Notes under the pieces: generated by a model | What the model was told of the DNA's origin: nothing | The model's input: only the letters and a program-made list of their open reading frames with translations | Database searches by the model: none | Assembly: GCA_963811105.1 (NCBI GenBank) | Contig: CAWEPZ010000009.1 | Location: 288,001-352,000, forward strand | Origin: Candidatus Bathyarchaeota archaeon | Lineage (GTDB): Archaea > Thermoproteota > Bathyarchaeia > Bathyarchaeales > Bathycorpusculaceae | Reading direction: 5' to 3' | Length of the DNA stretch: 64,000 bases | Shown here: piece after piece, positions 8,064 to 30,405 of the stretch | How positions within the stretch are numbered: the stretch's first letter is position 1 | How the letters are laid out: the number at the start of each line of letters is the position of its first letter | Position numbers and translations under genes: made by a program

Positions 8064-8246
8064 TTATGGTCTTACGCATTCGGCTTTTGGTTTATACGAA
8101 CGCTTCGTTGTTCTTCTCCGCTCATGCAGCTTACATTCACTGACTCGAGTAAGCATCCAGGCTTTATCTTGGTAAATGCACCCACATGGCAACTTAACTG
8201 TTTTTTGCTCTGTAGCTTTTTCAACGGTCTTTTTGGTTTCAGCCAT
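8064..8246 (-). CDS. Small basic protein with putative Zn ligands (LPCGC...CKLH)
   Basis: ATG at 8246, Lys/Arg-rich, CxC and CxxH motifs. Confidence 0.5.
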   Translation of the reverse strand: MAETKKTVEKATEQKTVKLPCGCIYQDKAWMLTRVSECKLHERRRTTKRSYKPKAECVRP

Positions 8247-9235: not shown

Positions 9236-9348
9236 GCTTCAAGCTTTGAAATAAGATCAATTTTCTTTTTTTGCTTTTTTCAATTTTAAGTTAAAGTTAT
9301 GCATGCCTTCTTGGAAACGCTTAAAACAGTCAGTTGATACTGTAGCGC

Positions 9349-10746: not shown

Positions 10747-10888
10747 AATCGTACAACGAAATGTGCACTTTTTACTTAAAGAATTTGGCAAACTGTTGAA
10801 CACTGTAGGGAAAACTGTATGTGAAGATCTCACCAAGAAAACAGCCAAATGTCCAACGAAAACAAAATGAACTTTACAAAAAAAATAA

Positions 10889-11167
10889 TTATAGAGGAGT
10901 TAGTTGAGTCAATCTCACTATGTTTCTTTTTTCCAGTCGTCGCAGAGCATCAAGGCATTCATCTTTTTTCTCGCCAGTAATTTCAAGGTTCACCATAATT
11001 TCTTTAACTGAAACCCCAGATTTGCCGAAGTTTTCATGTCTTTTATAGAGGTGTCGAACAATAGATTTTTCGAGTTTGCCGCATCTCCAAGTGGTGTGCC
11101 GGATCAAAACAACGATGGTTTTCACAAGTGTTTGCTCGTTTGCTTTTCTTCCCCGAGAGTCGCCCAT
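10889..11167 (-). CDS. Hypothetical protein, winged-helix-like
   Basis: ATG preceded by a GGTGG RBS-like motif; C-terminal helix-turn-helix-like segment ending ALRRLEKRNIV. Confidence 0.55.
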   Translation of the reverse strand: MGDSRGRKANEQTLVKTIVVLIRHTTWRCGKLEKSIVRHLYKRHENFGKSGVSVKEIMVNLEITGEKKDECLDALRRLEKRNIVRLTQLTPL

Positions 11168-11259
11168 CTCTCCACCGCCTTTCCTACACGTCGGCATGGT
11201 TTTTAAACGTTTGTTCCCCAACGATTTAAGCGCTTTATTTTTAAGGAAGACAGTACTTT

Positions 11260-11709
11260 CTAAAGGTTTTTTTTGAGATACAATCCATGCTTTTTCCCGT
11301 AGTAATTTTCTAGTTTTCCCATTTTTTGGTATTCCCTGTTTTGGTACAGTTTCAAAGCAATTGAGTTGTCTTCCCTAACTTCCAATTGGCATTCAACTAT
11401 GCCTTTATGCTTAAGGATCTCTTCAATTTCTTTGAGCATCTTACTTCCAATTCCTTTACGGCGGTACATCGGAGGAACATTTAGGGTTATAATATGTCCA
11501 AAGAGCTTGTCACTTTCAATTTCTATCTGCGCTATTATGAATCCGGCAACTTCATTGTCTGCCTTTGCAACTAATGCGATAGTGTTGTAGTCAGTTAACA
11601 AATAGGCTATTTGCTGTTTTGAAAATGCTTCTTGATCAAAGCATTGATCTTCGATTTCAGAAAGCTTATCAAGCATCCGCATGGAAGCGGTTTCGATTTT
11701 TATTTCCAT
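11260..11709 (-). CDS. rimI: RimI/Ard1-like N-terminal acetyltransferase
   Basis: GHIITLNV.P.YRRKGIG, LEVREDN..A..LY and NYY motifs. Confidence 0.9.
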   Translation of the reverse strand: MEIKIETASMRMLDKLSEIEDQCFDQEAFSKQQIAYLLTDYNTIALVAKADNEVAGFIIAQIEIESDKLFGHIITLNVPPMYRRKGIGSKMLKEIEEILKHKGIVECQLEVREDNSIALKLYQNREYQKMGKLENYYGKKHGLYLKKNL

Positions 11710-11835
11710 TTTGTCGTCTTTAAGATCATTATGGTTGCCCTATCATTTTATTTTTTTCGGTCATTTCCCCTTCTGATATGCTTGGTTTTGGTTCTAACCG
11801 TTGTTATTTGCCTAAAGCCAATTGTTTTTTGTTCA

Positions 11836-12300
11836 TCACTTGCGCTTCTTAAAAAGTTGATCCCCCTACACCATAGCGTGAAACTAAAAGCCAACTTTCA
11901 CAAGCTTAATGGCTTCTTCCATTGTGTCCGCAACTCTATCGGTGAATCGGTCGATAGTTTCTTCATAAATCATTTCTTCTAAGTGAACGTATTTTTCTGC
12001 TGAACCTATGCGCTTGTGATATAGAATCATTTTTACATGCCAAGAGTCCTTAATTCGATGTTGCTTATGGTTCCCTTCCCAATGCCTAAAAGTTTGGAAA
12101 TAAATCAGTAATAGATTAGAGTTAACTTCTTTCTAGCTAAAGCCCCTTTTTGCAGGAAGAAGTTTGCTTTTACATGCTCAACATTTGCAAATATTTTTTC
12201 ATTTGTTCTTGGTAGATTGCAAAGCATATCAAAGGTCTTAGCCGACGAGCGTGTTCGGCTGTTGCTTCACTTCTCGGCTTTAATCCTATACTTCAACTGT
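11836..12300 (-). pseudogene. Decayed tyrosine recombinase/integrase (catalytic and C-terminal part)
   Basis: IKAEK*SNSR...DMLCNLPRTNEKIF...YFQTFRHW...WHVKMILYHK...EKYVHLEE...EEAIKLVKVGF*...FKKRK with stops and frameshifts; may extend to ~12600. Confidence 0.8.
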
Positions 12301-12926
12301 GCAAAGTATTTGATCTTCCAACATAAGTACCAACATCTTATTATCTTTTACAATATTCGACGCTCAGGATTTCTTATACAATTCCCAGACTTCATCATCG
12401 TTTTCGATTGTCACCAAAGCTTACTCACCTTCGTTAATCTTTGAGAACAAGTTCTCAATTTCATGGTTAAATCTGCAAAGGCGGTCGTGTGTTTAGCGGG
12501 ACCTTCTTGGTTTTCGATTTCTTGAAGTCTTTAGCAAGAATGGTTTTAACTACTCGCTTTCAATAACATTAGCATCCATTAACGAAGAATTTGCAGGGTT
12601 TGTGCTTCTACGACCCTCGAAATAGCCCTCTTTGTTTCTAGCGCTTATTGTATTTAGGAATGAGTACTCCAAAAAAGAAGGGGAAAAGTCAGTTTCGGCC
12701 TAAAAGTGTACAGAGAAAAGAGGGTCCGATTGGAATTGAACCCAATTGGAGAACGAAGTTGCTTTCAAGAAAAGAAAAGGATGTTCTGAGGAACAGCATA
12801 ATTGCGCTTCTGGAGAATCAATTCCTGTCGGACTTTTCGATAATTCGTATAAAGTAGCTTACTCAACTGGTAAATGTCAGCCCTATCATTCAAATTTAAA
12901 TAATGTGGGTATCTTAAATAACTGTT

Positions 12927-14024
12927 TTAATCTATTTGAGGATCCTGCGTTGCCTTTCCGATATCTTTTTCGTTGCTTGTGGCGGCAATAGGTTGATTTT
13001 TGCCCAACAAAATTCCGACGCCTGCAAACTGAAAAGTTACGTAGCCAACAACAAGTTTGAACCAAAGAGTAATCACGCGGGTTAACAACGTTACGGAGAA
13101 ACTGACAGCTAGCGGAATCAGAAGAACTTGGTATGCCGTAGTCATGATGATTTCTGTTAATCCAACAAAAGATACACCGACCGACGCCAAAGTGCCTGTT
13201 AAGGCGTACACTATGAGCACTCGGTCCACAGGAATGGGATAACCCAGCGATGCAAAGACGAAAAACACGACAAAAACGTCGAATGCCACGCTCAAAAGAT
13301 AGAAAACAGTAGGACGTATCAAAGCTCTCTTTTCAGACTTCAAAGTATCAATGCCTCTGTGGAATATGTTTAGGAATTTTTCCGCCTCCTCCCGAAACTG
13401 AGCTTCGTTGAAGCGGGACCGCAAAAAGAAAGACAACAAGGGAATCAGAAACCTGTTAAGCACAGCTTTTGTGGACTTGACCCTTGAACTCATAAAATAC
13501 ACAACCAAAAAAGATGCAACGGACAATATTACAACTATACCGAAGAAAACCACTACCTGCTGCGGTAGAACATAGTTAACTGCAAAAAGCCCAAAACCCA
13601 ATATCAAAAGAAAAACGGTAACTGCCATGCCAATGATTTTTTGGCTAACCACCGAAGCCACGGTCTTGCCCACATCCCCATCAGACTTTTTGCTAAGCAT
13701 ATACGCTTTCGATATGTCTCCTGACCACCCAGGCTCAGGAAGAGTAGCATCGAAAAAGTAGCCTGCCCACGTCAAAATCACGGTTCTACGAATGCTGGTT
13801 TGAACCTTGAGATTACCCAGCAGGCTGTGCCATGTTAAAGCAGAAAAGAAGGTGGCAACGATAAATGCGACAAACGCAGACGTATAGAAGTAAATATTCG
13901 CCTGCCTGATTACGTCCACGAAGTTGCCTGTGCCAACGTAATAGTTTAAGTAAAAAATGAAAACAACTAACCCAATAACCGCAAACAGGATAATTCTTTT
14001 TAACTGCAGTGATTTCAGCGCCAT
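12927..14024 (-). CDS. Lysylphosphatidylglycerol synthase TM-domain (flippase-like) protein
   Basis: Multi-TM; W..LL, P...SGD..KAY and VGLTE motifs. Confidence 0.85.
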   Translation of the reverse strand: MALKSLQLKRIILFAVIGLVVFIFYLNYYVGTGNFVDVIRQANIYFYTSAFVAFIVATFFSALTWHSLLGNLKVQTSIRRTVILTWAGYFFDATLPEPGWSGDISKAYMLSKKSDGDVGKTVASVVSQKIIGMAVTVFLLILGFGLFAVNYVLPQQVVVFFGIVVILSVASFLVVYFMSSRVKSTKAVLNRFLIPLLSFFLRSRFNEAQFREEAEKFLNIFHRGIDTLKSEKRALIRPTVFYLLSVAFDVFVVFFVFASLGYPIPVDRVLIVYALTGTLASVGVSFVGLTEIIMTTAYQVLLIPLAVSFSVTLLTRVITLWFKLVVGYVTFQFAGVGILLGKNQPIAATSNEKDIGKATQDPQID

Positions 14025-14661
14025 GATGAAGCGAACCTTTTGCTATCCCATTGGAGATTCGCAGTTAAATCTCTATTTCTAAAAAAGCCCTCATTTGGTT
14101 TATTGATTCTTAAATCTTAAATTCAAGTCAGAACATAATTGTTTCAGAAAGAAGATAATTGCTTTGTATTGACTACGGATGACGATTTCAAAGACCCAAA
14201 AAAATGCCAAGCTTAGTTGCCTTTCCTATTTCATTCAGGTCAGGACCAATCTTGCTATGAAGAGCATTGAATCTTTCAGGATTCTGCCTCTTGACTTACT
14301 CAACACCGTTACGAAACGCATATGGACTTTCCAGCTTTTCTCGTTTCGGTTCTACATTTGCAAATAAGCAAAAAATTATTCTTGCCCCGACCAAAACTCG
14401 CTAAAGATTAAGCCTCTTTAAGATAAAGTTAAAACTTTTTTAACCATGATATACTTTAGAGAACGTCAACTTGTTTGCGGAAACAAGAATAACAAAAAAG
14501 CAAGAATATGCAGGTGTTGGCGAATCAACTCGCAAATCCAACACTGAGCAAGACGATCCTAAATATGCTAAATTTTTTGAGACCGATCAATTGAAACAAA
14601 TTTAATTCGTTAGCAACCTTTTAATCTAATTACGGCTCTAACGTAAAAAAGGTAAACGAAA

Positions 14662-16434
14662 TTGAACGACGACATCAAATGTTCAAAACCTGAATGCGAC
14701 AAATTCACTGCAATTAACGAGTTAGCAAAACGTAGAGGATTTTTCTGGCCGTCATTTGAAATTTATGGAGGCAGCGGGGGCTTTGTAACGTATGGTCCTC
14801 TTGGAACACGGTTAAAACAGAATATTGAAGCTAAACTTAGAGAACTTTTTGTTAAGAAAATCGGCATTTACGAAATGGAATCATCAGTCATTGCGCCAAG
14901 CAAAGTCTTTGAAGCTTCGGGTCATGTAGACCATTTTAAGGAGCCTATGGTTGAGTGTCAAAACTGTCACAACCGATTCCGCGCTGATCATTTGCTTGAA
15001 GAAAAAGGTGTGAGTTCGGCTGAAGCGGAAAAAATGACTTTGGATGAAATTAGAGAAGAAATTAAGAGGCATGAGGTTGTGTGCCCTGACTGCGGCGGAA
15101 GATTTGGCGAACCTCAGCGTTATTTGACAATGTTTGAAACAACAATTGGCCCATACTCAGGGGCGGTTGGGTATGGAAGACCTGAGGCTGCACAGAACAT
15201 TTTCGTAGAATTTAACAGGCTCTATACCGCTGCAAGAGAGAGACTGCCCTTCGGCGTCATCCAAATCGGCCATGCATTGCGTAATGAGATTTCGCCAAGG
15301 CAAGGCTTGATACGTTTAAGAGAATTCACAATTTCAGATTTAGAATTTTTCTTCGATCCCCAAGAACCAAGGTGTAATTTGCTTGGGGAAGTTGAAAACG
15401 AAGTATTGTCCATCCTTCTATGCGAAACCAGGCTGAAGGAGTGTGAGGACACAACTGACATGACAGTGAGAGAAGCGCTTGACCGAAAAGTAATCCGTTC
15501 AGAATGGCAAGCGTTCTTTATGGCTATGGCAAAAAAACTCCTAGTTGACCTTGGTGTACCAGCAAATAAACAGCGCTTCATTGAAAAGCTCTCATGGGAG
15601 AAAGCTCATTATTCAAGCCAAAGCTTTGATCAAGAAGTCCTTGTTGACCGTTGGGGCTGGGTAGAAGTTTCAGGTCACGCATACCGCACTGACTATGACT
15701 TATCATGCCATATGAAAGCAAGCGGCGTAGACATGACCGTTTACAAAGAATACCCTAACCCAGTAGAAAAAGAAGAACTTACTGTTAAGCCAAATATGGC
15801 TAAACTTGGACCAGTGTACAAGGGTGAAGCGGGAAAAGTGGCCGCACTGCTATCTAAGGTTCCTGCGCAAGAAGTTGCAGACGCCATCCAAGAACAAGGT
15901 TCCTTTATGGTTGACAAATACGAGATAAAACAAGACCAAGTAGATATTAGTCGCCAAAAAAAAATTGTTCGCGGTACACGATTCGTGCCCCACGTTGTGG
16001 AACCCAGTTTTGGCTCTGACAGGCTCTTTTACGTAGCCTTGGAGTACGCTTATGGAATAAAGAACGACCGCGTTGTTATGAGTTTTCCAAGAAGCATTGC
16101 ACCAATTCAAGTTGGTGTATATCCGTTAATGAATAAAGATGGCTTAGACGAAAAAGCAAAAACAGTGCAAATAATTTTGGCGAAAGAGGGTTTCATGTCT
16201 GAATCTGATGAAACAGGCTCAATTGGCAGACGGTATGCAAGGGCTGATGAGGCAGGTGTGCAATTAGGAATAACCATAGATTATGATACCTTGAAAGATG
16301 ATACTGTAACCATACGTGACCGAGACAGCTGGATGCAGGTTCGCGCTTCAATCAAAGATCTACCAAAACTTATGCACGCTTACTTCCAGGAAAAACTTAA
16401 CTTTACAGGTTTAGGAAAACTAATTGAAAAATAG
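14662..16434 (+). CDS. glyS: Glycine--tRNA ligase (archaeal/eukaryotic alpha2 type)
   Basis: RRGFFWPSFEIYGG, ASGHVDHF, RPEAAQ, RNEISPRQGLIRLREF, PHVVEPSFG.DR and GSIGRRYAR motifs. Confidence 0.97.
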   Translation: MNDDIKCSKPECDKFTAINELAKRRGFFWPSFEIYGGSGGFVTYGPLGTRLKQNIEAKLRELFVKKIGIYEMESSVIAPSKVFEASGHVDHFKEPMVECQNCHNRFRADHLLEEKGVSSAEAEKMTLDEIREEIKRHEVVCPDCGGRFGEPQRYLTMFETTIGPYSGAVGYGRPEAAQNIFVEFNRLYTAARERLPFGVIQIGHALRNEISPRQGLIRLREFTISDLEFFFDPQEPRCNLLGEVENEVLSILLCETRLKECEDTTDMTVREALDRKVIRSEWQAFFMAMAKKLLVDLGVPANKQRFIEKLSWEKAHYSSQSFDQEVLVDRWGWVEVSGHAYRTDYDLSCHMKASGVDMTVYKEYPNPVEKEELTVKPNMAKLGPVYKGEAGKVAALLSKVPAQEVADAIQEQGSFMVDKYEIKQDQVDISRQKKIVRGTRFVPHVVEPSFGSDRLFYVALEYAYGIKNDRVVMSFPRSIAPIQVGVYPLMNKDGLDEKAKTVQIILAKEGFMSESDETGSIGRRYARADEAGVQLGITIDYDTLKDDTVTIRDRDSWMQVRASIKDLPKLMHAYFQEKLNFTGLGKLIEK

Positions 16435-21131: not shown

Positions 21132-21231
21132 AAAACCGCAAAGTAGCCTCGTTATTTTTTACATATATATCTGCATGTTAGCAACAATTAAAAGCGCCTT
21201 TCGCTGAATCAACCTTCAAGAGGATGTTAAC

Positions 21232-21882
21232 ATGTCTGAACGATTTGCTAAAAAATGGGAAGCTAAAAGAGAAGAAGAATCATTTGGAAAAGCCATACAT
21301 GATACTATTCAGCCGCCACCACCACTAAAAATAGCCTTAGACCTTGCCTGCAGAAAACTTGATTTGCAAATTGGCAAGCTTGACCAAGCTAATGAACGCT
21401 TTACGCAAAAAGATAAGTCCCTTTTCGCTAAACTAGTGCAAGCATATACAAACCATGATTCATCACACGCAAACATTTATGCTATCGAACTAGCAGAAAT
21501 CCGCAAAATGACAAAACTAATTATGAACGCAAGACTCGCACTTGACCAAGTAGCTCTCCGCATAAAAACAGTTTCCGAGTTAGGAGATGTCGTTTCTGCA
21601 TTAGGACCATGCATTGGTGTACTGCGCAGCGTTAGCTGTGGACTTGGCGGAGTTTTACCTGAAGCAGAAAACGAACTAGGTGACATCGGAAATATGCTAA
21701 GCGGCTTAATGTTTGACGCAGGCACAAGCAGCGGAATGTCACTGAACTTCAACTCATGCAACGAAGATGCAGAAAGAATCCTAGCAGAAGCAGCAACTGT
21801 AGCTGAACAAAGAGTCAACTCCAATTTCCCTGACCTTCCACCAGGAATGTCAACAGGCACAGCTAATAAAACACAAACTTAA
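21232..21882 (+). CDS. Snf7/ESCRT-III (CdvB-like) protein
   Basis: Long helical hairpin, A.IYA.ELAEIRK, LDQV.LR..TV..LGD, and a C-terminal EA..VAEQ....FPDLP segment. Confidence 0.88.
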   Translation: MSERFAKKWEAKREEESFGKAIHDTIQPPPPLKIALDLACRKLDLQIGKLDQANERFTQKDKSLFAKLVQAYTNHDSSHANIYAIELAEIRKMTKLIMNARLALDQVALRIKTVSELGDVVSALGPCIGVLRSVSCGLGGVLPEAENELGDIGNMLSGLMFDAGTSSGMSLNFNSCNEDAERILAEAATVAEQRVNSNFPDLPPGMSTGTANKTQT

Positions 21883-22101
21883 GCAGAAAATACTTCTTTT
21901 TTAGCCCTCTGCCTTTCTTTTTTTTAGATTCAGAATCTTAGCTTGACAAAAATTGAGCATAGTTTACTCTATTTCGGATGGTTTGACCTTGCTCAAAAGA
22001 TTTTAGCTGTCATGCAATTGTATGTGCTTTCAGAAATGTCAACTTTGAATCTGCACAGTACAAAGATAAACAAGTCCCTTCAAAAAACGCCTATTAGTAC
22101 A

Positions 22102-22122
22102 TATTAGAACGAAATGTTCTAA
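22102..22122. promoter_or_regulatory. Palindromic operator-like site TTAGAAC-N5-GTTCTAA overlapping attL
   Basis: Perfect 7-bp inverted repeat; related copies at 29801-29828 and 30325-30349. Confidence 0.55.
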
Positions 22123-22133
22123 CAATTGGACTT
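22117..22133 (+). repeat. attL core TTCTAACAATTGGACTT
   Basis: Identical to 29823-29839. Confidence 0.85.
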
Positions 22134-22200
22134 TTTAGATGTTAAATTCCAAATTATTTATAAGCCCAGTTGAGAATACACTTTTGAGGATTGAGATAAC

Positions 22201-23412
22201 TTGACAAAGTTTGATGTAGTCGAAACTTGGATAAGCACAGTAGCTTTTTCTCACTCCAACAGCGAACGAACAAGCTTATGTTACCGCGAGAGTCTCAGGA
22301 AGTTTGAAGCCTACGCTGGAAAAACAGCCCAAGAAATCTATGTTGAGTATCAAAGCCCAAATGTTAGCGACAACAAATTCAAAATGTATTATGCGCAAGC
22401 TTTGAAAGGAATGATCGGGGACCTCCACAAAAGAGGGTACTCTGCTTCTTCTGTTTCAACTGCTGTTAACGCTGTGAAGTCCTTCTTCAAATATTCTGAC
22501 CTGCCTTTAGGCTTCATTCCTTCTGGTAATTCTATGATTGAGTTTCACAACAAAGACATCGAGAGAACTGATATTCTTGAGGTCCTGAAGACTTCTGGTC
22601 CACGAGAGAAGGCTTTCTTCACTTTGATGGCGCAATCAGGCTTGAGACCTATCACGCTTTGCGCCTTGAAACTCAAAGACGTAGAGAAGATCTTAGATGA
22701 GGACACGCCGATTCCTTGTTTAATCAAGGTGAAAATGGAGAACACTAAGGGCAAATTCTCTGAGTATTTTAGTTTTTGCGGAGAAGACTCTGTTGCGTAC
22801 TTGAAGGATTACTTGAAGACTAGGTCGAATTTGAACCCAGAATCTTACTTATTCTCTATGCAAGGCTTAGAGACTCAGCTTAACCCGGGTGTTGAAAGCC
22901 ACGTTTTCGACAAAACTGCTAAGAAGCTGAGGAACAGCGGAGTCCTTGACTACAAAACAGAAACGAAAGAGTTGAAGCAAGAGGTCCTGAGGAAAAGCGG
23001 AACCTACACACGCAACCTTCTCACGAGATCCGAGTTTCGACTGTACAATTTGCGGAAGTTCTTCAGGAAATATGCGAATCAAGCTGGAGGCGAATACGTC
23101 AACTTCTGGATGGGACACCTGTCAGCTTTGGGAGTGGACCTTCACTACTTCAGTCAAGACGTTGAGCAACACCGCGAGATTTACCGAGAGAAAGCTATGT
23201 CTTTCTTGCGCTTAGAGACACAGACACCGAGCGAGAACGAGAAACAGATCAAAGAGTTGAGAGAAGAGAATCTTGAGTTGAAAGCTGAAATAGCTGAGTT
23301 AGCGAAGGCACAAGAGAATTATGTGTATTTGGAACAGAAGTTTCTGAACCTCGAGAAACTGTTTGAGAAATTTGAAGCCTCCAAAGGCAAAGCTGTAACA
23401 GAGAAATCTTAA
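22201..23412 (+). CDS. Tyrosine recombinase/integrase with C-terminal coiled coil
   Basis: SGLR (R), TKGK (K), YNLRKFF (HxxR-like), WMGH and HY catalytic motifs; N-terminal core-binding domain. Confidence 0.92.
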   Translation: MTKFDVVETWISTVAFSHSNSERTSLCYRESLRKFEAYAGKTAQEIYVEYQSPNVSDNKFKMYYAQALKGMIGDLHKRGYSASSVSTAVNAVKSFFKYSDLPLGFIPSGNSMIEFHNKDIERTDILEVLKTSGPREKAFFTLMAQSGLRPITLCALKLKDVEKILDEDTPIPCLIKVKMENTKGKFSEYFSFCGEDSVAYLKDYLKTRSNLNPESYLFSMQGLETQLNPGVESHVFDKTAKKLRNSGVLDYKTETKELKQEVLRKSGTYTRNLLTRSEFRLYNLRKFFRKYANQAGGEYVNFWMGHLSALGVDLHYFSQDVEQHREIYREKAMSFLRLETQTPSENEKQIKELREENLELKAEIAELAKAQENYVYLEQKFLNLEKLFEKFEASKGKAVTEKS

Positions 23413-23449
23413 GAATCAATGTTCTCCAATGGTTTCCATCTGTTGAAAT

Positions 23450-23472
23450 AAGCTCATCTTGAGCTTCTTTTT
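23450..23472 (+). terminator. Hairpin plus T-tract after the integrase gene
   Basis: AAGCTCA-TCT-TGAGCTT followed by CTTTTT. Confidence 0.5.
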
Positions 23473-23521
23473 ATTATTGCTGGCTAAATAAGGCTTATAA
23501 GTTACTTAGTAACCCAATAAC

Positions 23522-24055
23522 TTGAGGATTGAGTTAGAATTGAAAATATTGAAGTCTAAAAAGAAAATAAGCCTTATCGCTCTGTCCTTAGTTTCTTTGA
23601 TGTTAGTGTCTGGGGCGATGGGCGCAGTTCTGTTCTCCCGTCAAGTCGGGTCAACAATCAACGTGGTCTACAGTCGAGACCTCCAAATGTTCAGCAACAC
23701 CGCTTGCACTACAACTTTGACAAGTTTTAGCTACGGAGATGTAGCACCGAACACTGTCAAAGTTTATGGTTCAACAGATCCGAGTATCTATGGAAAGAAT
23801 CCTACTACTGCTCAAGGCGCAATTAATGTGACTTGGCACGTAACTGGTCTTCCAAGTTGGTTAACTTTGACTTTGAAAGGTGGCGGAGGATCTTTTGGTG
23901 TGGCTCTGCAAAATTGGGACCTTGGAACTGAAGGATGTGTGTTGGCTGTTGGCGACAAGTTTTATTGTGAAGTCACTTTGACTGTTGCTTCAAATGCTCC
24001 TGAAGGTTCCGCTTTGAACGCTGGAACCTTAGTGTTTGACTGTACTCAAGCTTAG
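23522..24055 (+). CDS. Secreted beta-sandwich protein (possibly a TasA/fibre-subunit-like protein)
   Basis: Basic plus hydrophobic signal ending GAMGA; beta-rich mature part with Cys residues; own TATA box (23495) and T-tract terminator. Confidence 0.75.
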   Translation: MRIELELKILKSKKKISLIALSLVSLMLVSGAMGAVLFSRQVGSTINVVYSRDLQMFSNTACTTTLTSFSYGDVAPNTVKVYGSTDPSIYGKNPTTAQGAINVTWHVTGLPSWLTLTLKGGGGSFGVALQNWDLGTEGCVLAVGDKFYCEVTLTVASNAPEGSALNAGTLVFDCTQA

Positions 24056-24134
24056 GAGTCAGTCCCTCTCTCTTTTTTTTGGTGGTTGAAAGGTTCAGTG
24101 GAAACTTTGAGGTTGTCTCTGTGGAGTGGTTGAT

Positions 24135-24275
24135 GTGAAAAGAAAATGTGAAGTTGCTGAAGTTGAAGCTTTAGATGTTGAGTGTCTTGAGGAACTTGAG
24201 TGGGAGAGACGTTGGGAACAGCGTAGAAGGTTGGAACGGAAACTTGACTTTGAGAGGATGATCAGCTTTGGCTAA
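24135..24275 (+). CDS. 46-aa charged peptide (not in ORF track)
   Basis: GTG start after GGAGTGG; MKRKCEVAEVEALDVECLEELEWERRWEQRRRLERKLDFERMISFG; overlaps the next ORF. Confidence 0.55.
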   Translation: MKRKCEVAEVEALDVECLEELEWERRWEQRRRLERKLDFERMISFG

Positions 24276-24429
24276 GTCAGCTAAATGGGTTGGTTTAGGC
24301 TTAGGAAGACGCTGTAGAATCCGCATGCGCTGTCAAGAGTGCGATGTGACCTTTTGGAAGTGGCTGACTCTTCAAACTCTTGAGGTTCATTGTCCAAATT
24401 GCCGAAGTGACTGTGTTGAAGGTCTGTAG
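24268..24429 (+). CDS. 53-aa zinc-ribbon protein (not in ORF track)
   Basis: MAKSAKWVGLGLGRRCRIRMRCQECDVTFW...HCPNCRSDCVEGL; CxxC...CxxC; followed by a T-tract. Confidence 0.7.
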   Translation: MAKSAKWVGLGLGRRCRIRMRCQECDVTFWKWLTLQTLEVHCPNCRSDCVEGL

Positions 24430-24472
24430 GCAGACCCTTTTTTCTTTGGTCTCTTAACCCTGCTTTTTTTGC

Positions 24473-24787
24473 TTAACTTTCTGTTGAGTCACAGGAGTCA
24501 CAGTAGCGGTCTTCAAAGTCCACTCTGCAACGGACCTCGTTCAATCTCGGAATCACTGGTGGAACACTCCAGCCTAACAGATGTCTTCCACGTTGAGGAA
24601 GCTCGTAGGCTTTGTACCTGCTGATTGAAGCGTAAACTTCTCCTTTGACTCCATGGGGAAGAATTGATCCGCACACTCGACATTTTAAGCCTTCAGTCTT
24701 CATTGGAATCATGTGAAAAATGGTTCTCTTAGTCGCTGTCGGAAAACTGATTCCTTTCTTGGATATTACTGCTTTAGCCCAAACCAT
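24473..24787 (-). CDS. Element hypothetical protein with CxxC...CxxC
   Basis: CRVCG and YCDSC; GAGGA upstream. Confidence 0.7.
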   Translation of the reverse strand: MVWAKAVISKKGISFPTATKRTIFHMIPMKTEGLKCRVCGSILPHGVKGEVYASISRYKAYELPQRGRHLLGWSVPPVIPRLNEVRCRVDFEDRYCDSCDSTES

Positions 24788-25040
24788 AGTTCAGAGTCCT
24801 CTTTCAAAGGTTTCAAGTTTCTGTGCTGGAACATAAGAATTTTTGGTTTAACATTGAAGGTTGAGACCACTACATCCAATTGGATCTAACTGGGAAGATG
24901 TTTGGAAGTGAAGGCTTAACCAGCCGAATAGAAGAAAGGAGACGAGTTTCCTAGGGAACTGTTCTCTGATGGAAGGCAGAGGACAACTCCTTTATTTGCC
25001 CAGTGAATTCGCCTTAGCTGGGTGGAATGTGACTGTTCTT

Positions 25041-25616
25041 CTACTCGGTTTCTGGAGCCTTCAACTTCCAAGTGATCTTCAAAGCAGGCTGGTAGCCTCT
25101 TATCAGCTTAGTCGGGTCCAACAGGGGAATTATGCTTTCGTACTGGATCTTGTTTTCTCGCTTCAGCCTTTCTGCTTCGGATTGTGCTAGTTTGCAGAAG
25201 TGTTCTGGTGCTATGGCGACTTTGGCGACTCTGGTGTCAAACACTGTTTTGAAGGGCAGATTCTCTAAAACTCTGCTCTCGTAGCTTTGTGGAAATCCTA
25301 GTCTGATTTGGTGTTCTGTGGATCCTAAAGTTCTTGCATTTGCCACTGCTTGCTCGTAAGCTAACTTTGCCTTCGGCAATTCCACAGCTAGGTACTTCTC
25401 GTTAACTGTTTTTTGGTGACTGTGCTCTATGGAATCTTTCTGGTTAACCCACACGTCAGCGTATCCTGCTGAAGCTTCAATGTAGCCTTCTCGCTCGACT
25501 AGGTTGGCTCCCCAGTTTTGTCTGTAACCTAAAATGATTTCCCAAGAGAAGCCTTCAGTTACACCAGCATACTCCAGAACACTCTTCTTTTGAATCTTAG
25601 GTTTCTTCGTTGGCAA
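25041..25616 (-). CDS. Element hypothetical protein
   Basis: 191-aa ORF, 4 nt from the upstream gene in the minus-strand operon. Confidence 0.75.
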   Translation of the reverse strand: MPTKKPKIQKKSVLEYAGVTEGFSWEIILGYRQNWGANLVEREGYIEASAGYADVWVNQKDSIEHSHQKTVNEKYLAVELPKAKLAYEQAVANARTLGSTEHQIRLGFPQSYESRVLENLPFKTVFDTRVAKVAIAPEHFCKLAQSEAERLKRENKIQYESIIPLLDPTKLIRGYQPALKITWKLKAPETE

Positions 25617-25620
25617 CGCT

Positions 25621-26079
25621 TCAAGCCTTCAGGTCTTCAAGTTTCACAGTTAACGATTTCTCGCACTCTTTCAGGTAATGTATGAACTCGCTTAACACAG
25701 GAGAAATGGATTCACTGATTACGGAAGGTGTGACGCCTAAGACTACGCCTTCAAAGAACTCTTTCTTCTTCTCGGTTTCAGTCCTTGACTTCAAGATGCC
25801 GTTTTGGTTTGGATGTCCCTTCAAACTCCAAATAGCCTCGTTCAGTTGACATTCACCGTTCACTAACAACATTTCAAGCGCTAATGAGTCACGTACCGCT
25901 TTATGCATGATACCAGCCATGTTGTAGAGTTGATGTAGCATAACTGTCGCTGGCAAATAGTCTCCTTTAGACTTGAAATCTTCATGAGAAAGCTCTTTCT
26001 CAAGAAATTGACACTCTGTATCTAGACTGCAACCAAACTGTAACTCTAAAGTCTTCAATTTCGCATGGATAGGCAACAT
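25621..26079 (-). CDS. Element hypothetical protein (helical)
   Basis: 152-aa ORF with GAGGA upstream. Confidence 0.7.
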   Translation of the reverse strand: MLPIHAKLKTLELQFGCSLDTECQFLEKELSHEDFKSKGDYLPATVMLHQLYNMAGIMHKAVRDSLALEMLLVNGECQLNEAIWSLKGHPNQNGILKSRTETEKKKEFFEGVVLGVTPSVISESISPVLSEFIHYLKECEKSLTVKLEDLKA

Positions 26080-26151
26080 ACTAATTCTATGTCCTCAGTA
26101 ATGGGCAAACCTGAGTTTTTCAACAGGCCGACACTTCAACACTCCACCCAG

Positions 26152-26220
26152 TTGTGCAACATTGCACAAGTGGATGAATCGACCTTTGTGCAACATTGCA
26201 CAAACGTGGATAAATCAACA
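26152..26220. repeat. Tandem ~35-bp repeat, each unit containing the palindrome TTGTGCAA-CA-TTGCACAA
   Basis: Identical 18-mers at 26152-26169 and 26186-26203, each followed by GTGGATRAATCRAC. Confidence 0.85.
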
Positions 26221-26517
26221 TTTTCTGGAAAGAATCTTCCTCAACTTCTCAGGCTTAAACATCTTATGAAGAGATCTCTGGTGTAGCTGTAGAATTTCTT
26301 GGTCCCTCTTCAAGTCCTCCTCAAGCTCAAGACGCTTCAAGTACAGGACCCTGTTCTCTACTGGAACTCCTTTGAGTAACTCGAGTTCTGCTCTGTGTTT
26401 TCGCTTCAAATACTGGAGATGTTGCCTCTTCTGTTCCTTGGACCTCACAGGTTTTCCTGCAACACTGAAGGAATCTGCATGGACACTTACTTCTCGGTCA
26501 ATGGAGTTTTCGATCAT
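26215..26517 (-). CDS. Element hypothetical basic/coiled-coil protein
   Basis: 100-aa ORF, 4 nt downstream of the previous gene. Confidence 0.65.
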   Translation of the reverse strand: MIENSIDREVSVHADSFSVAGKPVRSKEQKRQHLQYLKRKHRAELELLKGVPVENRVLYLKRLELEEDLKRDQEILQLHQRSLHKMFKPEKLRKILSRKC

Positions 26518-26521
26518 TGAC

Positions 26522-27112
26522 TCATTTCCCCCTGTCTACAGAAGCTTTCTGAGTGCTAATTTGGCACATTTGAGTGTCAACTGGGACATTTCGTTTTCTT
26601 TGTCGAAAATAAGCTACTCTATGCTTCAAAGAACAGAACCTTGCCTTGTTGCTTTTAGCTTGAAAACGAGTTTTGCAGAATAAGCAAACCTTGTTTCTTC
26701 TCTGCTTCACATGCTCTCTACGTCTAATTATTCCAGCGTCAACACTGCAACGGTAAGAACAGTACAGTCGCCTTCTACTTTTAGAATAGAACAGGTTACC
26801 GCAAACAGAACAGTTTTTCTTAAAGTTTAAAGATTCATAACCCCAAAATTCGAGATTTTTTTCATAATCCTCGGGGTTTGCCGAATTTTGTACTATCCTA
26901 AGTTGCGGGTAACGTTCGCCTAAGGTTGGAAACGATTTTAGGCTATGTTCAATTGATCCTAACCTAACAGCGTTACAGTAGTCTATGCGTAGGCAAGTAT
27001 CTTTTTTCTTGAATTGTTCCTCTTCCCATGCGTCAAGCCAACTTAAGTCAGGTAACGATTTAATGCTTGTATCAATTGAGACAAGCTTGGAATCGTTACT
27101 CATGAAGAACAC
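26522..27112 (-). CDS. Protein with two C-terminal treble-clef-like zinc fingers (putative DNA binding)
   Basis: CSVCG..F.......YCSYRC and CLFC...F.......FCSLKH followed by basic helices. Confidence 0.75.
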   Translation of the reverse strand: MFFMSNDSKLVSIDTSIKSLPDLSWLDAWEEEQFKKKDTCLRIDYCNAVRLGSIEHSLKSFPTLGERYPQLRIVQNSANPEDYEKNLEFWGYESLNFKKNCSVCGNLFYSKSRRRLYCSYRCSVDAGIIRRREHVKQRRNKVCLFCKTRFQAKSNKARFCSLKHRVAYFRQRKRNVPVDTQMCQISTQKASVDRGK

Positions 27113-28836
27113 CTGTCTACTGTAGGTTTCTGAGTGTCTGTTCGGTCCTTTTCTATGTCAACTGGAAGCTTAAGCTTGAAGCATGTGAGGAAACCAGCCC
27201 ATTTGTCTGAAGACACAGACATAAAATTGTCACCGATATAACCGCAACTTGCCAAATGAAAATCTCGACAGTTACCACACACTCTGTCTTCACTGTCAGA
27301 AGACGGAACCTTTGGAACCTGTGTTGTACCACTAAACCCAAGTGAGGCTGAAGCTTTCTTTGTTTCACTAACTACAAGTGGGGCTCCTGCCCCCTCACCT
27401 TCCTTCTCCTTTATACCCCCCTTTTCCCCTATTCCCTCTCCACTTGTGTTTAGTGAAACAAACATATTATGGTCACTACGACCGTTCAACGGTCCAAAAG
27501 GCAATATCAGAATTCTTAAAGTGGGATCCAGCAAAGTCCAGCCGTCTTTCTCTGGAACATGTTTAGAACCAATGACGGTGCCAGAGTAACCGTAGTGGTC
27601 TACTTCAATTTTCTCGTGTTTGACTACATTCAAGTATTCCAGTTCTTTGAGTTCTCGCCAACAGGTTGACAGGGGAATTTCTGTGGCTTCAGCAATTTCT
27701 CTTGTAGTGTACTGTTGATCATCTTTTTTCAATGCTTCTAAGATTTTGATTCTGTGAGGGTACACTGTGTCTTTTGCTACTCGCTGGACCGTTTTGAGTT
27801 CTTCTTCAGAAACAACAGTTTTTCCTCTTACCAAAGCGAGACAGATAGCTAACTTCAACAGTTGTTTGCTGAGTCGAGTCGGGTACTCTATGCTCGGCGT
27901 TAAGGAATTGTTGATTTCATATCGATAAAAATTGATTGAGACAGGTGTTCTCAAAGTAGCAGTTGCATTTGCAAGCTTCAAGATAACAGATAAAACTTCA
28001 GGTGAGACCGCTTCAATTTTCTTTGGTTCTTTATGGAAGTTGTCAAGTAGACGCCAAGTTATTTCCTGTAGTTCCTTACGCATTTCCTCTTCTTTGCCTA
28101 GGTTCGATAAGGCTTTCTCTGTTGCGAGTTTACGATCGGGATTATGTCTTATCTTCAGGAATCTCTCGCCTAGAGTGCCTTGTAGTTTTCCGTAGTGGTC
28201 AACTGCCGGGGTCACAGCCGCTATTAATCCAAAGTTGGCGTGAACTCTAACAGGTGTACCAGTTGTTCCGTAACCATACTCTAAGTAGCCATCGTAGCCA
28301 GCGCGTAGTTGACTGAAGATTTCATCTCGCTCTTCACTTCTTTTCCCAAGAATCAAAGTGAAGTCTTTGATGATCAAAACTTTGCCGTCGAGTTGTGGCA
28401 AAATTCCTTGCACAGGAACCATGTTGCCTTCTTCGTCTGGTTCAAGTTTGCCGCTGATCAAAGTGTGCGCAGTCAAAGAATCCAAAGTGTAAGCCATATC
28501 TGAAGTGTTTGCCCTTACGATCTCTGTTTTGGTTCCTCCGCTTGCACTTATTAACATAAGCCAAAGTGGATCGCCAGGTACGAGTCTGTCAATTGAACAC
28601 GCCATAATAACATCGATTACTTCGTGGTCGCTGTCGAGGTAAAGCCACTTCTGAAAGACTTCTTTGACTTCTTGAAGAGTTGCAGGAATAGGTGTTTTCT
28701 TTATTACTTCTAACATTTTTTTGCCTTCACCCCTACATTTGGGACATAGAAGATTGCCTGTAGCAGTGACTCTGGTTACTTCAGGGCTAACGATTCCGCA
28801 GGATACACATTGTTCCCACTTCGGTTTTTCCGTCAT
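27100..28836 (-). CDS. MCM-like AAA+ ATPase/helicase with N-terminal Zn finger and C-terminal winged helix
   Basis: Walker A SASGGTKT, Walker B-like VLIIKDF, LR..YDG, IAAVTP, Arg-finger GERF, sensor-2-like PTRLSKQLLKLA; HTH TTREIAEATEIPLSTCWREL. Confidence 0.8.
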   Translation of the reverse strand: MTEKPKWEQCVSCGIVSPEVTRVTATGNLLCPKCRGEGKKMLEVIKKTPIPATLQEVKEVFQKWLYLDSDHEVIDVIMACSIDRLVPGDPLWLMLISASGGTKTEIVRANTSDMAYTLDSLTAHTLISGKLEPDEEGNMVPVQGILPQLDGKVLIIKDFTLILGKRSEERDEIFSQLRAGYDGYLEYGYGTTGTPVRVHANFGLIAAVTPAVDHYGKLQGTLGERFLKIRHNPDRKLATEKALSNLGKEEEMRKELQEITWRLLDNFHKEPKKIEAVSPEVLSVILKLANATATLRTPVSINFYRYEINNSLTPSIEYPTRLSKQLLKLAICLALVRGKTVVSEEELKTVQRVAKDTVYPHRIKILEALKKDDQQYTTREIAEATEIPLSTCWRELKELEYLNVVKHEKIEVDHYGYSGTVIGSKHVPEKDGWTLLDPTLRILILPFGPLNGRSDHNMFVSLNTSGEGIGEKGGIKEKEGEGAGAPLVVSETKKASASLGFSGTTQVPKVPSSDSEDRVCGNCRDFHLASCGYIGDNFMSVSSDKWAGFLTCFKLKLPVDIEKDRTDTQKPTVDRCSS

Positions 28837-28952
28837 TGGTACAACTCCTCACCACAGCACCAGCATTGAGTTCTGTACTTAGAGTTCATTTTGCCACACT
28901 TCCAACATTGCACTGTGTTGGCGGTGACTACTCTTTCTTCAAGAACACTCAT
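28833..28952 (-). CDS. 39-aa zinc-ribbon peptide (not in ORF track)
   Basis: MSVLEERVVTANTVQCWKCGKMNSKYRTQCWCCGEELYQ; ATGA overlaps with both neighbours. Confidence 0.75.
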   Translation of the reverse strand: MSVLEERVVTANTVQCWKCGKMNSKYRTQCWCCGEELYQ

Positions 28953-29176
28953 TCCGTAGCCTCCTCCTCGAGTGGGTCCTTGCTTAATGGAATAATGAAT
29001 TTCCAGAAAGTGTGAAATTTGTCGCCTTCAGAAGGCAACATTTCGCCTCTCATCGCTATGAGGAAGGTTCCCTCGATTGTTTTGAAAAAAATTTCTAAGG
29101 CTTCTTGTTTTCCTGTTCCTTTAACAGTGATTGTTGACGCTTCTCTTGGTGGACGATTCTTGTTCATTGTTTTCAC
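28949..29176 (-). CDS. Element hypothetical protein
   Basis: 75-aa ORF translationally coupled to the next gene. Confidence 0.65.
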   Translation of the reverse strand: MKTMNKNRPPREASTITVKGTGKQEALEIFFKTIEGTFLIAMRGEMLPSEGDKFHTFWKFIIPLSKDPLEEEATE

Positions 29177-29201
29177 TCTTCATGTGTTTTCACCTTACCC
29201 A

Positions 29202-29229
29202 AGTTCCAGTTTCCAGTTTCCAAGTTCCA
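29202..29229. repeat. Four tandem 7-mers (AGTTCCA/GTTTCCA)
   Basis: AGTTCCA GTTTCCA GTTTCCA AGTTCCA. Confidence 0.7.
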
Positions 29230-29259
29230 GATTTTTTCCGTTTCAACCTTAAGAACGGA

Positions 29260-29421
29260 TTACTCTACGAGTGGGATTGCTTCTCTCAGCACGTGTCTTA
29301 TTGCGTTGCTTCTTGTGAGTCCCCGTGCTTTTGACCATCTGTCGATTTCTTTGACGTACTCGTTTGACTCTTCAAAGGATACAGTTTGGTGACCTGTTCT
29401 AATTTTCTTCGATGTCTCCAA
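29260..29421 (-). CDS. CopG-like ribbon-helix-helix protein, 53 aa (not in ORF track)
   Basis: METSKKIRTGHQTVSFEESNEYVKEIDRWSKARGLTRSNAIRHVLREAIPLVE: strand-helix-GLTRS-helix; AGGAG RBS and TATA box upstream. Confidence 0.8.
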   Translation of the reverse strand: METSKKIRTGHQTVSFEESNEYVKEIDRWSKARGLTRSNAIRHVLREAIPLVE

Positions 29422-29576
29422 CTCAAATTTCTCCTTTTTTTCTTAGCACTTACTAAACCTTCTTAGTTTTAAAGGTTGCTAACAACGTGTCAATAACTGA
29501 GTAACTTAGTTACCGAAATTGATTGGAAAGTGACAATCTTCACCATCGAAGATTCCATGTGTCTGTCAACAACATG

Positions 29577-29602
29577 GGGTTTGTACAATATTGTACAAAC
29601 CC
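29577..29602. repeat. 26-bp perfect palindrome
   Basis: GGGTTTGTACAATATTGTACAAACCC. Confidence 0.9.
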
Positions 29603-29698
29603 TTCCAGAGTTCTGTCAACAGTCTTTGCTTGCAGAAAAAGGAAGACAAAACTTAGAAGCTACTTATCCAAAGAATGGTCAAAAAGGATTCCAACCAG

Positions 29699-29722
29699 TG
29701 CTTGTACAATCTTGTACAAGCA
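29699..29722. repeat. 24-bp palindrome with 2-nt centre
   Basis: TGCTTGTACAA-TC-TTGTACAAGCA. Confidence 0.9.
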
Positions 29723-29822
29723 TTAACTCTGTTGAGAAGGTTGATTCTCTCGAGACTGTAACTCAAAACTGCAAGCAACTGAGTAAGCCTTAAATTTGCT
29801 GTTCTACTTATTAGAACTTAAT

Positions 29823-29839
29823 TTCTAACAATTGGACTT
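29823..29839 (+). repeat. attR core TTCTAACAATTGGACTT
   Basis: Identical to 22117-22133; runs into the TATA-like CTTATATG of the next gene. Confidence 0.85.
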
Positions 29840-29883
29840 ATATGCTCCTTGCAATTTCTTATGTTCCTTGGGGGTTCAAGTGC

Positions 29884-30330
29884 TTGAACGGTAAAGAGGA
29901 AACTGACCTGGAATATGCGCTAAAAGGCAAAGCATGGAAAGTTTATTGGTTTCTACTCAAAACTGGCAATCCTGTGGGTGTCCGCGAGGTTCAACGTGCG
30001 CTGCATTTCAGCAGCCCAAGCATCGCATTTCATCATCTTGAGCAGTTACGAGAACTTGGATTGGTTCAGAAGCAAGAGATTGGTGGACACTACTCATTGG
30101 TTGGGGAAGTAAAAATCGGTGTATTACGTCACTATGTTAAGCTTGGGAAATTGCTGTTTCCAAGATATTTCTTCTACGCCTTATTCTCGACCATGTTCTA
30201 CATTTTGTATTTGACCATTCTGTTCAGCGGTTTCACCCGAGATAACTTATTCATACTCTCATTCGGAGCAATTGTCTGCGCAATATTCTGGTACGAAGCG
30301 TACCGAATTTGGGCAATGAGGCCATTCTAA
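29884..30330 (+). CDS. Membrane-anchored winged-helix transcription regulator
   Basis: VGVREVQRALHFSSPSIAFHHLEQL HTH plus two C-terminal TM helices; the listed ATG at 29842 lies in the TATA-like box, so TTG at 29884 is preferred. Confidence 0.85.
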   Translation: MNGKEETDLEYALKGKAWKVYWFLLKTGNPVGVREVQRALHFSSPSIAFHHLEQLRELGLVQKQEIGGHYSLVGEVKIGVLRHYVKLGKLLFPRYFFYALFSTMFYILYLTILFSGFTRDNLFILSFGAIVCAIFWYEAYRIWAMRPF

Positions 30331-30405
30331 CTATTAGAACAGCTTGTTCGCAGGCTTAGCATCAAATAAACACGTGCATTATGCTTTAGCAGGAGAAAAA
30401 AATGT

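Follow-up and report, generated by a model that had tools for sequence, protein, structure and literature searches.

A 7706-bp integrated mobile element, probably plasmid-like, with an MCM-like replication protein in a Candidatus Bathyarchaeota archaeon

To our knowledge, mobile elements of Bathyarchaeia are known almost only as metagenomic viruses, and a literature search under the name of the lineage returned no paper describing a plasmid or a cryptic integrated element from it. The small plasmids of the pSSVi/pRN family from Sulfolobales (5-8 kb) carry a CopG-like ribbon-helix-helix (RHH) protein, one large replication protein and an integrase; the replication protein of pRN consists of a PrimPol and a superfamily 3 (SF3) helicase, and the integrase of pSSVi is of the SSV type, which splits on integration. 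The cryptic integrated elements (CIEs) of Thaumarchaeota are described by Krupovic et al. (2019; PMC6563490) as encoding integrases together with MCM, Cch-like or primpol replication proteins and as having intergenic targets. Here we report on a 7706-bp element at positions 22117-29822 of a 64-kb stretch of DNA from a Candidatus Bathyarchaeota archaeon (the window; positions 288001-352000 of contig C9 of the source genome, G000), which encodes a tyrosine integrase and a 578-aa MCM-like replication protein. Its status as an integrated mobile element whose boundaries are fixed to the single base is nearly certain, and there is good reason to regard it as a self-replicating, excisable plasmid-like element, i.e. 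a CIE or integrative plasmid.

The element is enclosed by an exact 17-bp direct repeat, TTCTAACAATTGGACTT, with the left copy (attL core) at 22117-22133 and the right copy (attR core) at 29823-29839; only 2 nt separate the end of the right core from the ATG of the winged-helix (wHTH) gene of the host. No other copies of TTCTAACAATTGGACTT were present in the whole source genome (3.49 Mb, 15 contigs). Of 60 first-order Markov simulations of a 64-kb window, 9 produced one or more exact 17-mer direct repeats with copies 2-30 kb apart (mean 0.25), and the real window held seven k-mer pairs of this kind. By itself the 17-mer repeat was weak evidence; its position and the comparisons between genomes were decisive. 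Other exact direct repeats of at least 17 nt in the window (39760/50812, 39763/46448, 39886/46571, 59375/63413 and 16621/44872) are probably paralogous genes or repeats. The G at 22116, directly before the attL core, agreed with the host attachment site (attB) of relatives, GTTCTAAC, and its retention is what a chromosomal origin of the left side of attL would predict. The likeness of the two junctions extended leftward with one indel, attL reading ATTAGAAC-gaaatg-TTCTAAC and attR ATTAGAAC-ttaat-TTCTAAC. No contrast in GC content or composition was seen between the element and its flanks. The window contained no tRNA, indicating that the integration target was not a tRNA gene. Eleven open reading frames (ORFs), all open, gave the element a coding share of about 83%, and its proteins were single-copy in the source genome, save for two distant paralogs of the integrase (22-24% identity).

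Two host genes, both on the plus strand and both outside the element, flank the insertion. The left one (21232-21882) encodes an ESCRT-III/CdvB1-B2-like (Snf7) protein of 216 aa, which matched NCBIfam cell_div_CdvB1_B2 at E 7.7e-51 (under cut-off) and Pfam Snf7 at 4.7e-4 and was syntenic with UbiA in relatives; two paralogs of it occur in the source genome at C13:88182-88829 and C9:187407-188021 (62% and 37% identity). The right one (29842-30330) encodes a 162-aa wHTH protein with C-terminal hydrophobic stretches (LexA_DNA_bind, 2.9e-5), which was 77-88% identical in five of the six relatives' loci having the gene and 41% identical in G004. A DNA search with the left flank (UbiA and the Snf7/CdvB-like gene) covered 61 genomes, including the source genome, and gave matches in 56 of them, among which were all 36 congeners drawn. 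Ten loci were kept, i.e. that of the source genome and those of nine relatives. Four of the nine relatives (G003, G004, G030 and G036) showed the order UbiA, Snf7, wHTH and beta-propeller with a gap of about 140-470 bp between Snf7 and wHTH, and in two others (G029 and G021) this gap measured 1.1-1.3 kb and contained small unrelated genes. No wHTH gene was reached inside the fetched flank of G013, G028 and G019; on extension, G013 showed a 3.3-kb stretch that contained three unrelated ORFs and lacked an integrase, and G019 showed other genes as far as the contig end. The att core, followed by AT, preceded the ATG of wHTH in every locus that reached this gene, with a core identity of 17/17 in G030 and G036, 15/17 in G003 and G004 and 14/17 in G029 and G021. 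The direct adjacency of Snf7 and wHTH, which the original prediction had proposed as something to seek in related genomes, was accordingly observed in four of nine relatives' loci, and conserved synteny lacking an empty site, the outcome it had named as contrary, did not occur.

An empty site was also found in sequencing data from a close relative. A run search yielded three runs (X1-X3, from two studies), each with 5-7% of the sampled words, and their contigs were compared with positions 21200-30400. Contigs of all three linked 22116 to 29823, omitting 7706 nt, and 17 letters could be placed on either side of the joint. On their shorter side the bridging contigs extended over 39 nt in X1 and no fewer than 255 nt in X2 and X3. 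They differed from the flanks by about 3% (28/991 letters in X2 and 38/1147 in X3), indicating that their source was a close relative and not the present strain. The joining of 22116 to 29823 indicates that the boundaries are exact and that the presence of the element is polymorphic between strains. Together with the repeat and the empty loci of relatives, it bears out the boundaries, the 7706-bp size and the integrated state that had been proposed from the window.

The host target was an inverted repeat, TTAGAAC-N5-GTTCTAA, which overlaps with the final 30 nt upstream of the start codon of wHTH and is conserved among relatives. The arm of the element next to attR (29798-29822) holds GCTGTTCTA and ATTAGAAC-N5 and mimics the host sequence upstream of the core. 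It supplies ATTAGAAC-TTAAT-TTCTAAC and, further to the left, GCTGTTCTA, which directly precedes the core in relatives. Because this arm copies the host sequence upstream of the core, the wHTH gene of the host would retain a look-alike upstream region. A 19-nt inverted repeat (84% complementary; 29798-29816 and 30325-30343) was also found to flank the wHTH gene, with att-region half-sites (TTCTAA/TTAGAA) in both arms; it may serve the wHTH protein as an operator. In congeners the intergenic distance between Snf7 and wHTH ranged from 0.14 to more than 4 kb and was occupied by unrelated small genes (G013, G019, G029 and G021 loci), and a 43-aa zinc-ribbon ORF recurred at this site in G030, G036, G029 and G021. 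This intergenic region resembles a hotspot for the gain of genes.

A different insertion of about 9.2 kb occupied the same Snf7-wHTH site in G020 (C59:44000-62000; locus L054, about 3000-12240). Its integrase, 50% identical to that of the present element, lies downstream of Snf7 and is preceded on the left by the att-like sequence GTTCTAATAACTGGACT. The insertion ends at the wHTH gene, where the right junction is degenerate and has only CTGGACT in common with the left. No homolog of the 578-aa helicase was found within it; it encodes a 609-aa protein with a GxxGxxKS motif and a downstream N, which we take to be SF3-like, as well as a DeoR-type HTH protein and a GNAT. The occurrence of a related integrase with a different replication gene indicates that the integrase/att module pairs with differing replication modules, and the degenerate right junction indicates that elements at this site can decay.

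The integrase gene (22201-23412, plus strand) is intact and encodes a tyrosine integrase of 403 aa, which was identified by Pfam (Phage_integrase PF00589, 28.0 bits vs a cut-off of 27.1), PHROGs (phrog_1, E 8e-7) and a profile match to XerA. A profile of three sequences (the integrases of the element, G020 and G034) matched archaeal XerA (5hxy_A, E 1.9e-10) over the SAM-like domain and the first half of the catalytic domain. Residues R149, K183, Y282, R285, H306 and Y316 were invariant in the three homologs, with R149 and K183 situated in the stretch aligned to XerA. R149..Y282-x-x-R285..Y316 thereby forms the pattern R..YxxR..Y, which is the consensus given for pNOB8-type integrases, vs R..KxxR..Y for the SSV1 type, in a review (PMC8371274). 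As in the pNOB8 type described there, the att site (22117-22133) lies outside the gene and the gene is whole after integration, and the integrase was therefore unsplit, as had been stated from the window. The protein showed low similarity to named integrases (NCBIfam XerA equivalog, 43.5 bits vs a cut-off of 220), and the likeness to the pNOB8 type is one of consensus pattern and gene layout. An SSV-type ('suicidal') integrase was rejected, since the gene consists of one whole 403-aa ORF outside the att site and no integrase fragment was present at the other end. The heptad-rich C-terminal tail we read as a putative coiled coil. Relatives of the integrase at E<=1e-20 were detected in 8 of 120 genomes of the genus, including the source genome, and this sporadic spread would fit a mobile gene. 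A scan of viral contigs with the integrase profile gave one weak relative (26% over 100 aa). The leader of the gene (22134-22200, plus strand; 72% AT) contains TTTATAA, possibly an archaeal TATA box. A stretch of 36 nt outside the window (C9:205735-205770, locus L057 of the source genome) was 94% identical to positions 22135-22170 of this leader (TAAATTCCAAATTATTTATAAGCCCAGT); no element gene was found near it, and it may represent a promoter that both places have in common or a scar left by an earlier element.

The replication protein of 578 aa is encoded on the minus strand (27100-28836). On the basis of family, profile and fold searches, it comprises a Zn ribbon (C10, C13, C31 and C34), a helical linker, an MCM-like AAA+ core (~90-360), a winged helix (362-400) and a low-confidence Cys-rich tail. 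Pfam, PHROGs and NCBIfam returned no MCM or other ATPase family at E<=0.01, the winged helix alone being recognised (Pfam HTH_24 at 362-400, E 1.4e-6; helices at 360-401 and then strands in the structural model), and a sequence profile search of PDB with 78 sequences of the helicase family returned winged-helix proteins only. An AlphaFold (AF2) model built on the 78-sequence alignment was confident for residues 50-450 (pLDDT >90 in most blocks, pTM 0.75) and poor for residues 1-45 and 454-578. In a Foldseek search of PDB with this model, the first 14 rows were all MCM2-7 subunits (E 2.2e-9 to 7.4e-9; yeast MCM at 2e-9), followed by BchI (8.2e-9). VIA-align was run with the model against 48,161 representatives and matched MCM8/9 with a Z of 18.7 (rmsd 3.6, 261 residues aligned, model residues 47-360), chain 7 of the C. 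elegans CMG (8ouw_7; MCM7) with 18.6, chain 6 of the yeast MCM2-7 double hexamer (3ja8_6; MCM6) with 18.2, chain 3 of the human MCM2-7 double hexamer (8s09_3; MCM3) with 17.8 and archaeal MCMs with 16.2-17.3. The top MCM matches aligned 261-284 residues at an rmsd of 3.6-4.5. Other matches were BchI and RavA (Z 16.2), BrxL (15.3), ComM (14.2), SCCmec Cch (5dgk; 13.1), the SaPI replication helicases (9.7-11.2, with 8tch at 11.2) and the SF3 helicases D5 and NrS-1 (8.5-9.6). As modelled, the core is an AAA+ domain from the clade to which MCM belongs, and the best MCM match exceeded any other by about 2.5 Z units.

Conserved motifs of the core were SASGGTKTE (97-105; K103 and T104 invariant), LIIKDFT (D158 invariant), IAAVTP (205-210), LGERF (R225 invariant) and R296, which we take, by analogy with MCM, to be Walker A, Walker B, sensor 1, arginine finger and sensor 2. 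The N-terminal OB-fold/Zn domain of MCM (~250 aa) is absent, as the first core strand begins after only about 90 residues; these include the CxxC..CxxC ribbon (pLDDT 50-60) and helices at 35-45, 54-64 and 72-81. The designation 'MCM-like ATPase' in the original prediction thus held at the level of the fold, by both Foldseek and VIA-align, and failed with respect to a Pfam MCM match and the MCM N-terminal domain. SCCmec Cch and SaPI Rep, helicases of integrative islands in bacteria, resemble this arrangement in that an MCM-like or related AAA+ helicase lies beside a recombinase on a small integrative element (Z 13.1 for 5dgk and 11.2 for 8tch); they differ from it in that cellular MCMs match the present protein better (Z 16-18.7) and in domain of life and recombinase type.

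A phmmer search of 1.84 billion cluster representatives gave 5413 matches to the helicase at E<=1e-3, 3817 at 1e-10 and 970 at 1e-30, with a common core of approximately residues 50-410. When 17 homologs (12 of them long forms) were scanned in Pfam, Prim-Pol was found in five, AEP-TOTE in one, PriCT_1 in two and Zn_ribbon_DnaG in two, and no known ATPase family was found in any. Precomputed domains among the 120 matches listed included PF09250 in eight, PF13155 in six, PF01807 in three and PF16793 in two. According to Kazlauskas et al. (2018; PMC5862659), PrimQH-type replication proteins of mobile elements combine ZnBD/PriCT, a P-loop ATPase (of the MCM family in some) and a winged helix. Homologs of the 578-aa protein are like them in having Prim-Pol, PriCT_1 or a DnaG-type Zn ribbon before the same core, whereas the 578-aa protein itself is a primase-less form with only the Zn ribbon before the ATPase. 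Few relatives came from named sources, which included Candidatus Bathyarchaeota, Nanoarchaeota and Chloroflexota. A scan of genome contigs gave 20 helicase loci, six from Bathyarchaeota, one from Thermoplasmata and thirteen bacterial. In two of the Bathyarchaeota loci (L022 and L023) a helicase of 55-56% identity is directly followed by a tyrosine integrase, and the L022 helicase is fused to Prim-Pol; no integrase was seen in the part of locus L021 that was scanned. Loci L021-L023 had no element gene other than the helicase in common with the present element.

The same helicase family was also found on contig C3 of the congener G027 (loci L015-L017; 43,779 bp, GC 38.6%), whose exact 147-bp terminal overlap indicates a circular contig. 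Besides the helicase (32-37% identity), this contig encodes a portal, a tail-tube-like protein, a family B DNA polymerase, a dNMP kinase, a PD-(D/E)XK nuclease and a HerA-like ATPase; it is the complete circular genome of a head-tailed virus. The trio of dNMP kinase, MCM-like helicase and PolB has been described for 'Kunpengvirus' in a publication on Bathyarchaeia viruses (PMC10848311).

Four 18-bp palindromes were found in non-coding parts of the element. Two identical copies of TTGTGCAACATTGCACAA, 34 bp apart, lie at 26152-26203 in the 135-bp gap (26080-26214) between the ORFs of 152 and 100 aa, and each is followed by GTGGATRAATCRAC. The other two, TTGTACAATATTGTACAA and TTGTACAATCTTGTACAA, lie 121 bp apart at 29581-29719 in a 400-bp non-coding region (64% AT) upstream of the RHH gene. 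The pattern TTGTRCAA-NN-TTGYACAA had four exact matches in the window, all inside the element, and these were also the only matches in the whole source genome; none was found in 55 loci from other genomes. At up to two mismatches there were five matches vs 0.19 expected, and none of 100 shuffles reached five. From their sequence and position, the palindromes are likely candidates for operator or origin (iteron) sites.

From the right, the minus-strand genes encode the RHH protein and proteins of 75, 578, 196 and 100 aa, then, after the 135-bp gap, proteins of 152 and 191 aa and, after a gap of 253 bp, a protein of 104 aa. All ORFs named in the original prediction, i.e. the integrase, this minus-strand set and a plus-strand block, were present and open. 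The first gene of the set (29260-29421) encodes the CopG-like RHH protein of 53 aa, which matched RHH_1 with 19.8 bits vs a cut-off of 20.5, phrog_7325 (CopG-like repressor) at 2.1e-5 and aCcr1_fam at 1.2e-4, the last far under cut-off. The orphan ORF of 75 aa (28949-29176) and a Cys-containing one of 104 aa (24473-24787) had no match in Pfam, PHROGs or NCBIfam. The zinc-finger protein of 196 aa (26522-27112), with two motifs of the CxxC..YCSxxC type, matched phrog_2862 (unknown function) at 1.1e-7 and DUF1272 at 1e-3, under cut-off. A basic protein of 100 aa (26215-26517) was weakly similar (34% over 71 aa, E 3.7e-7) to an ORF adjoining the homolog of the 191-aa protein in locus L058, and the orphan ORF of 152 aa (25621-26079) was unmatched, a word-indexed search of 5.8 billion proteins returning only itself. 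The protein of 191 aa (25041-25616) had three homologs (49-54% identity) and was absent from 400 other genomes of the class searched; an atlas search gave no usable match. Its homolog in L058 lies inside an element of about 8.5 kb (6170-14683) delimited by a 28-bp repeat at tRNA-Leu(GAG), which also has its own integrase, a CoiA-like nuclease and a radical-SAM-like protein. An AF2 model of the 191-aa protein from four sequences (pLDDT 78) showed a small sheet and a long helical hairpin; the best PDB match (Z 6.9) covered the helical hairpin only, the best BFVD match had an E of 0.06, and no capsid was matched.

The plus-strand block downstream of the integrase gene begins with an N-terminally hydrophobic protein of 177 aa (23522-24055), which has one hydrophobic segment (aa 14-32) and is predicted to be secreted or anchored. 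It had no Pfam, PHROG or NCBIfam match, and its atlas neighbours were unnamed clusters, mostly viral, the nearest named one being DUF1102 at 0.90 (a lead only). Two overlapping small ORFs follow, one of 49 aa (24126-24275) and one of 53 aa (24268-24429) with a CxxC..CxxC zinc ribbon (Zn_ribbon_8 at 1.9e-3, under cut-off). A terminator-like hairpin (24421-24436) lies at their end. A bacterial promoter scan was uninformative, as the host is archaeal.

With respect to its nature, the element showed an integrase, att repeats, an empty site elsewhere and a replication gene. Capsid, packaging and conjugation families, which the original prediction had not recognised either, were not found in the Pfam, PHROGs and NCBIfam scans, the fold search being limited to the 191-aa protein. 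No Pfam family of a VirB4/TraG/HerA-type transfer ATPase was matched, a single protein with a hydrophobic segment was present, and there is no room for a conjugative pore set in 7.7 kb. Like the CIEs characterised in PMC6563490, the element is small and integrase-bearing, has direct repeats, an intergenic target, a replication protein of the MCM/Cch/primpol kind and RHH/wHTH regulators, and is without recognised viral and conjugative hallmark genes. It differs from these CIEs in its host lineage (the named helicase relatives being from Candidatus Bathyarchaeota), in a divergent MCM-like helicase that has no MCM N-terminal domain and is missed by Pfam MCM, and in an attB that overlaps with the sequence immediately preceding a host regulator gene. 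It is best read as a new example of the known CIE/integrative-plasmid kind and not as a new kind. It also shares with pSSVi and the pRN plasmids a CopG-like RHH protein, one large replication protein and an integrase. A satellite plasmid of the pRN/pSSVi type was nevertheless rejected, because Prim-Pol was lacking, SF3 helicases matched with a Z of 8.5-9.6 vs 18.7 for MCM and the integrase was unsplit; of genes related to a helper virus, only the helicase was in common with the congeneric virus contig of G027.

Several observations weigh against the reading as a self-replicating, excisable plasmid-like element. Six of the 11 ORFs (177, 49, 104, 191, 152 and 75 aa) had no recognisable family, the fold search covering only that of 191 aa, and a novel structural protein might be among these orphans. 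The empty-site contigs, being about 3% divergent, represent presence/absence polymorphism between strains and not excision in the present strain. Contigs of the three runs (best run, 7% of the words) covered the flanks and the empty site and not the element itself, and its excision and replication are therefore what we infer. The C-terminal catalytic residues of the integrase are putative, having been read from the conserved pattern, and the Pfam and XerA alignments end near residue 221-243. No primase is encoded, and Pfam detected no Prim-Pol domain in the 578-aa protein. Binding of the RHH protein and/or the winged helix of the helicase to the palindromes, by which these would mark promoters and the origin, is likewise proposed from sequence.

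It is unlikely that the element is a virus satellite comparable to pSSVi/pSSVx or to SaPI/PICI, with its own helicase and packaged by a helper such as a head-tailed virus of the genus. Its layout of integrase, small regulators and helicase resembles that of satellites, the circular virus of G027 carries a helicase of the same family, SaPI replication helicases were among the structural matches and the atlas neighbours of the 177-aa protein were mostly viral. The helicase was, however, the sole gene in common with the G027 virus (tblastn, E<=1e-2), neither Pfam nor PHROGs detected families for a terminase small subunit, for capsid-size redirection or for head and packaging functions, and no relative turned up when viral contigs were scanned with the helicase, the 191-aa family and the 177-aa protein. 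A link by CRISPR spacers was also lacking: element DNA gave only short weak matches against 120 genomes of the genus, and CRISPR arrays were present neither in eight loci checked nor in the source genome, which showed only an 84-nt tandem repeat on C1. The satellite idea is without positive support. It is similarly doubtful that the element would be an archaeal counterpart of phage-inducible chromosomal islands, mobilised in the capsids of head-tailed viruses that share its helicase family, and equally so that, in such a counterpart, one or more of the orphan proteins would act on helper assembly.

Even less probable is that the element has been immobilised, i.e. that it once integrated and can no longer excise or replicate. 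No direct sign of activity was obtained, and the degenerate right junction of the G020 insertion shows decay at this site; against this, the two repeat copies agree at all 17 bp, none of the 11 ORFs is interrupted, the integrase retains every residue at the conserved catalytic positions, the four palindromes conform exactly to TTGTRCAA-NN-TTGYACAA and presence is polymorphic at ~97% flank identity. The lowest probability we assign to a provirus of a very small undescribed archaeal virus with its structural proteins among the orphan ORFs. The six ORFs without a recognisable family and the signal-like N-terminus of the 177-aa protein would suit such a provirus, as would the size, 7.7 kb being within the range of the smallest archaeal dsDNA viruses, among which are the pleolipoviruses. 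However, no real ORF had two hydrophobic helices as in the capsid proteins of spindle viruses (a hydrophobic segment occurring in the 177-aa protein only), no large spike-like protein or set of membrane proteins was found, the fold of the 191-aa protein matched no capsid and no PHROG structural category was hit, save for a head-tail adaptor match of the RHH protein at 0.0099.

For the favoured plasmid-like element, the parts described above could act together as follows. The integrase would recombine the 17-bp core common to attP and attB and, because its gene lies outside the att site (pNOB8-type) and so survives integration, could catalyse excision to a 7706-bp circle. After insertion the attR arm (ATTAGAAC-N5-TTCTAAC) would leave the host gene an equivalent upstream region. 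The RHH protein, and perhaps the winged helix of the helicase, would bind the four palindromes, control the minus-strand genes and mark the origin, where the primase-less helicase would load and recruit the host primase and polymerase. The plus-strand genes, encoding the putatively secreted or anchored protein and the two tiny proteins, would be cargo.

The element is unusually well defined, having single-base boundaries, a site found empty in a natural population and occupied elsewhere by another element whose integrase is related, candidate operator/origin repeats and a compact replication module. Its parts of wider use are a precise att system, element-specific palindromes and a large unmodelled family of MCM-like helicases. 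This family has at least 5413 cluster representatives in archaea and bacteria and no Pfam, PHROG or NCBIfam model despite its MCM-like AAA+ fold, and a family model would improve the annotation of many mobile elements. The element also offers a practical start for in vitro tests of integration and replication and, as soon as hosts become culturable, for the design of vectors. Among replicons of this uncultured lineage, it may be the first that is compact, is fully delimited, has att sites and could be used as a vector backbone.

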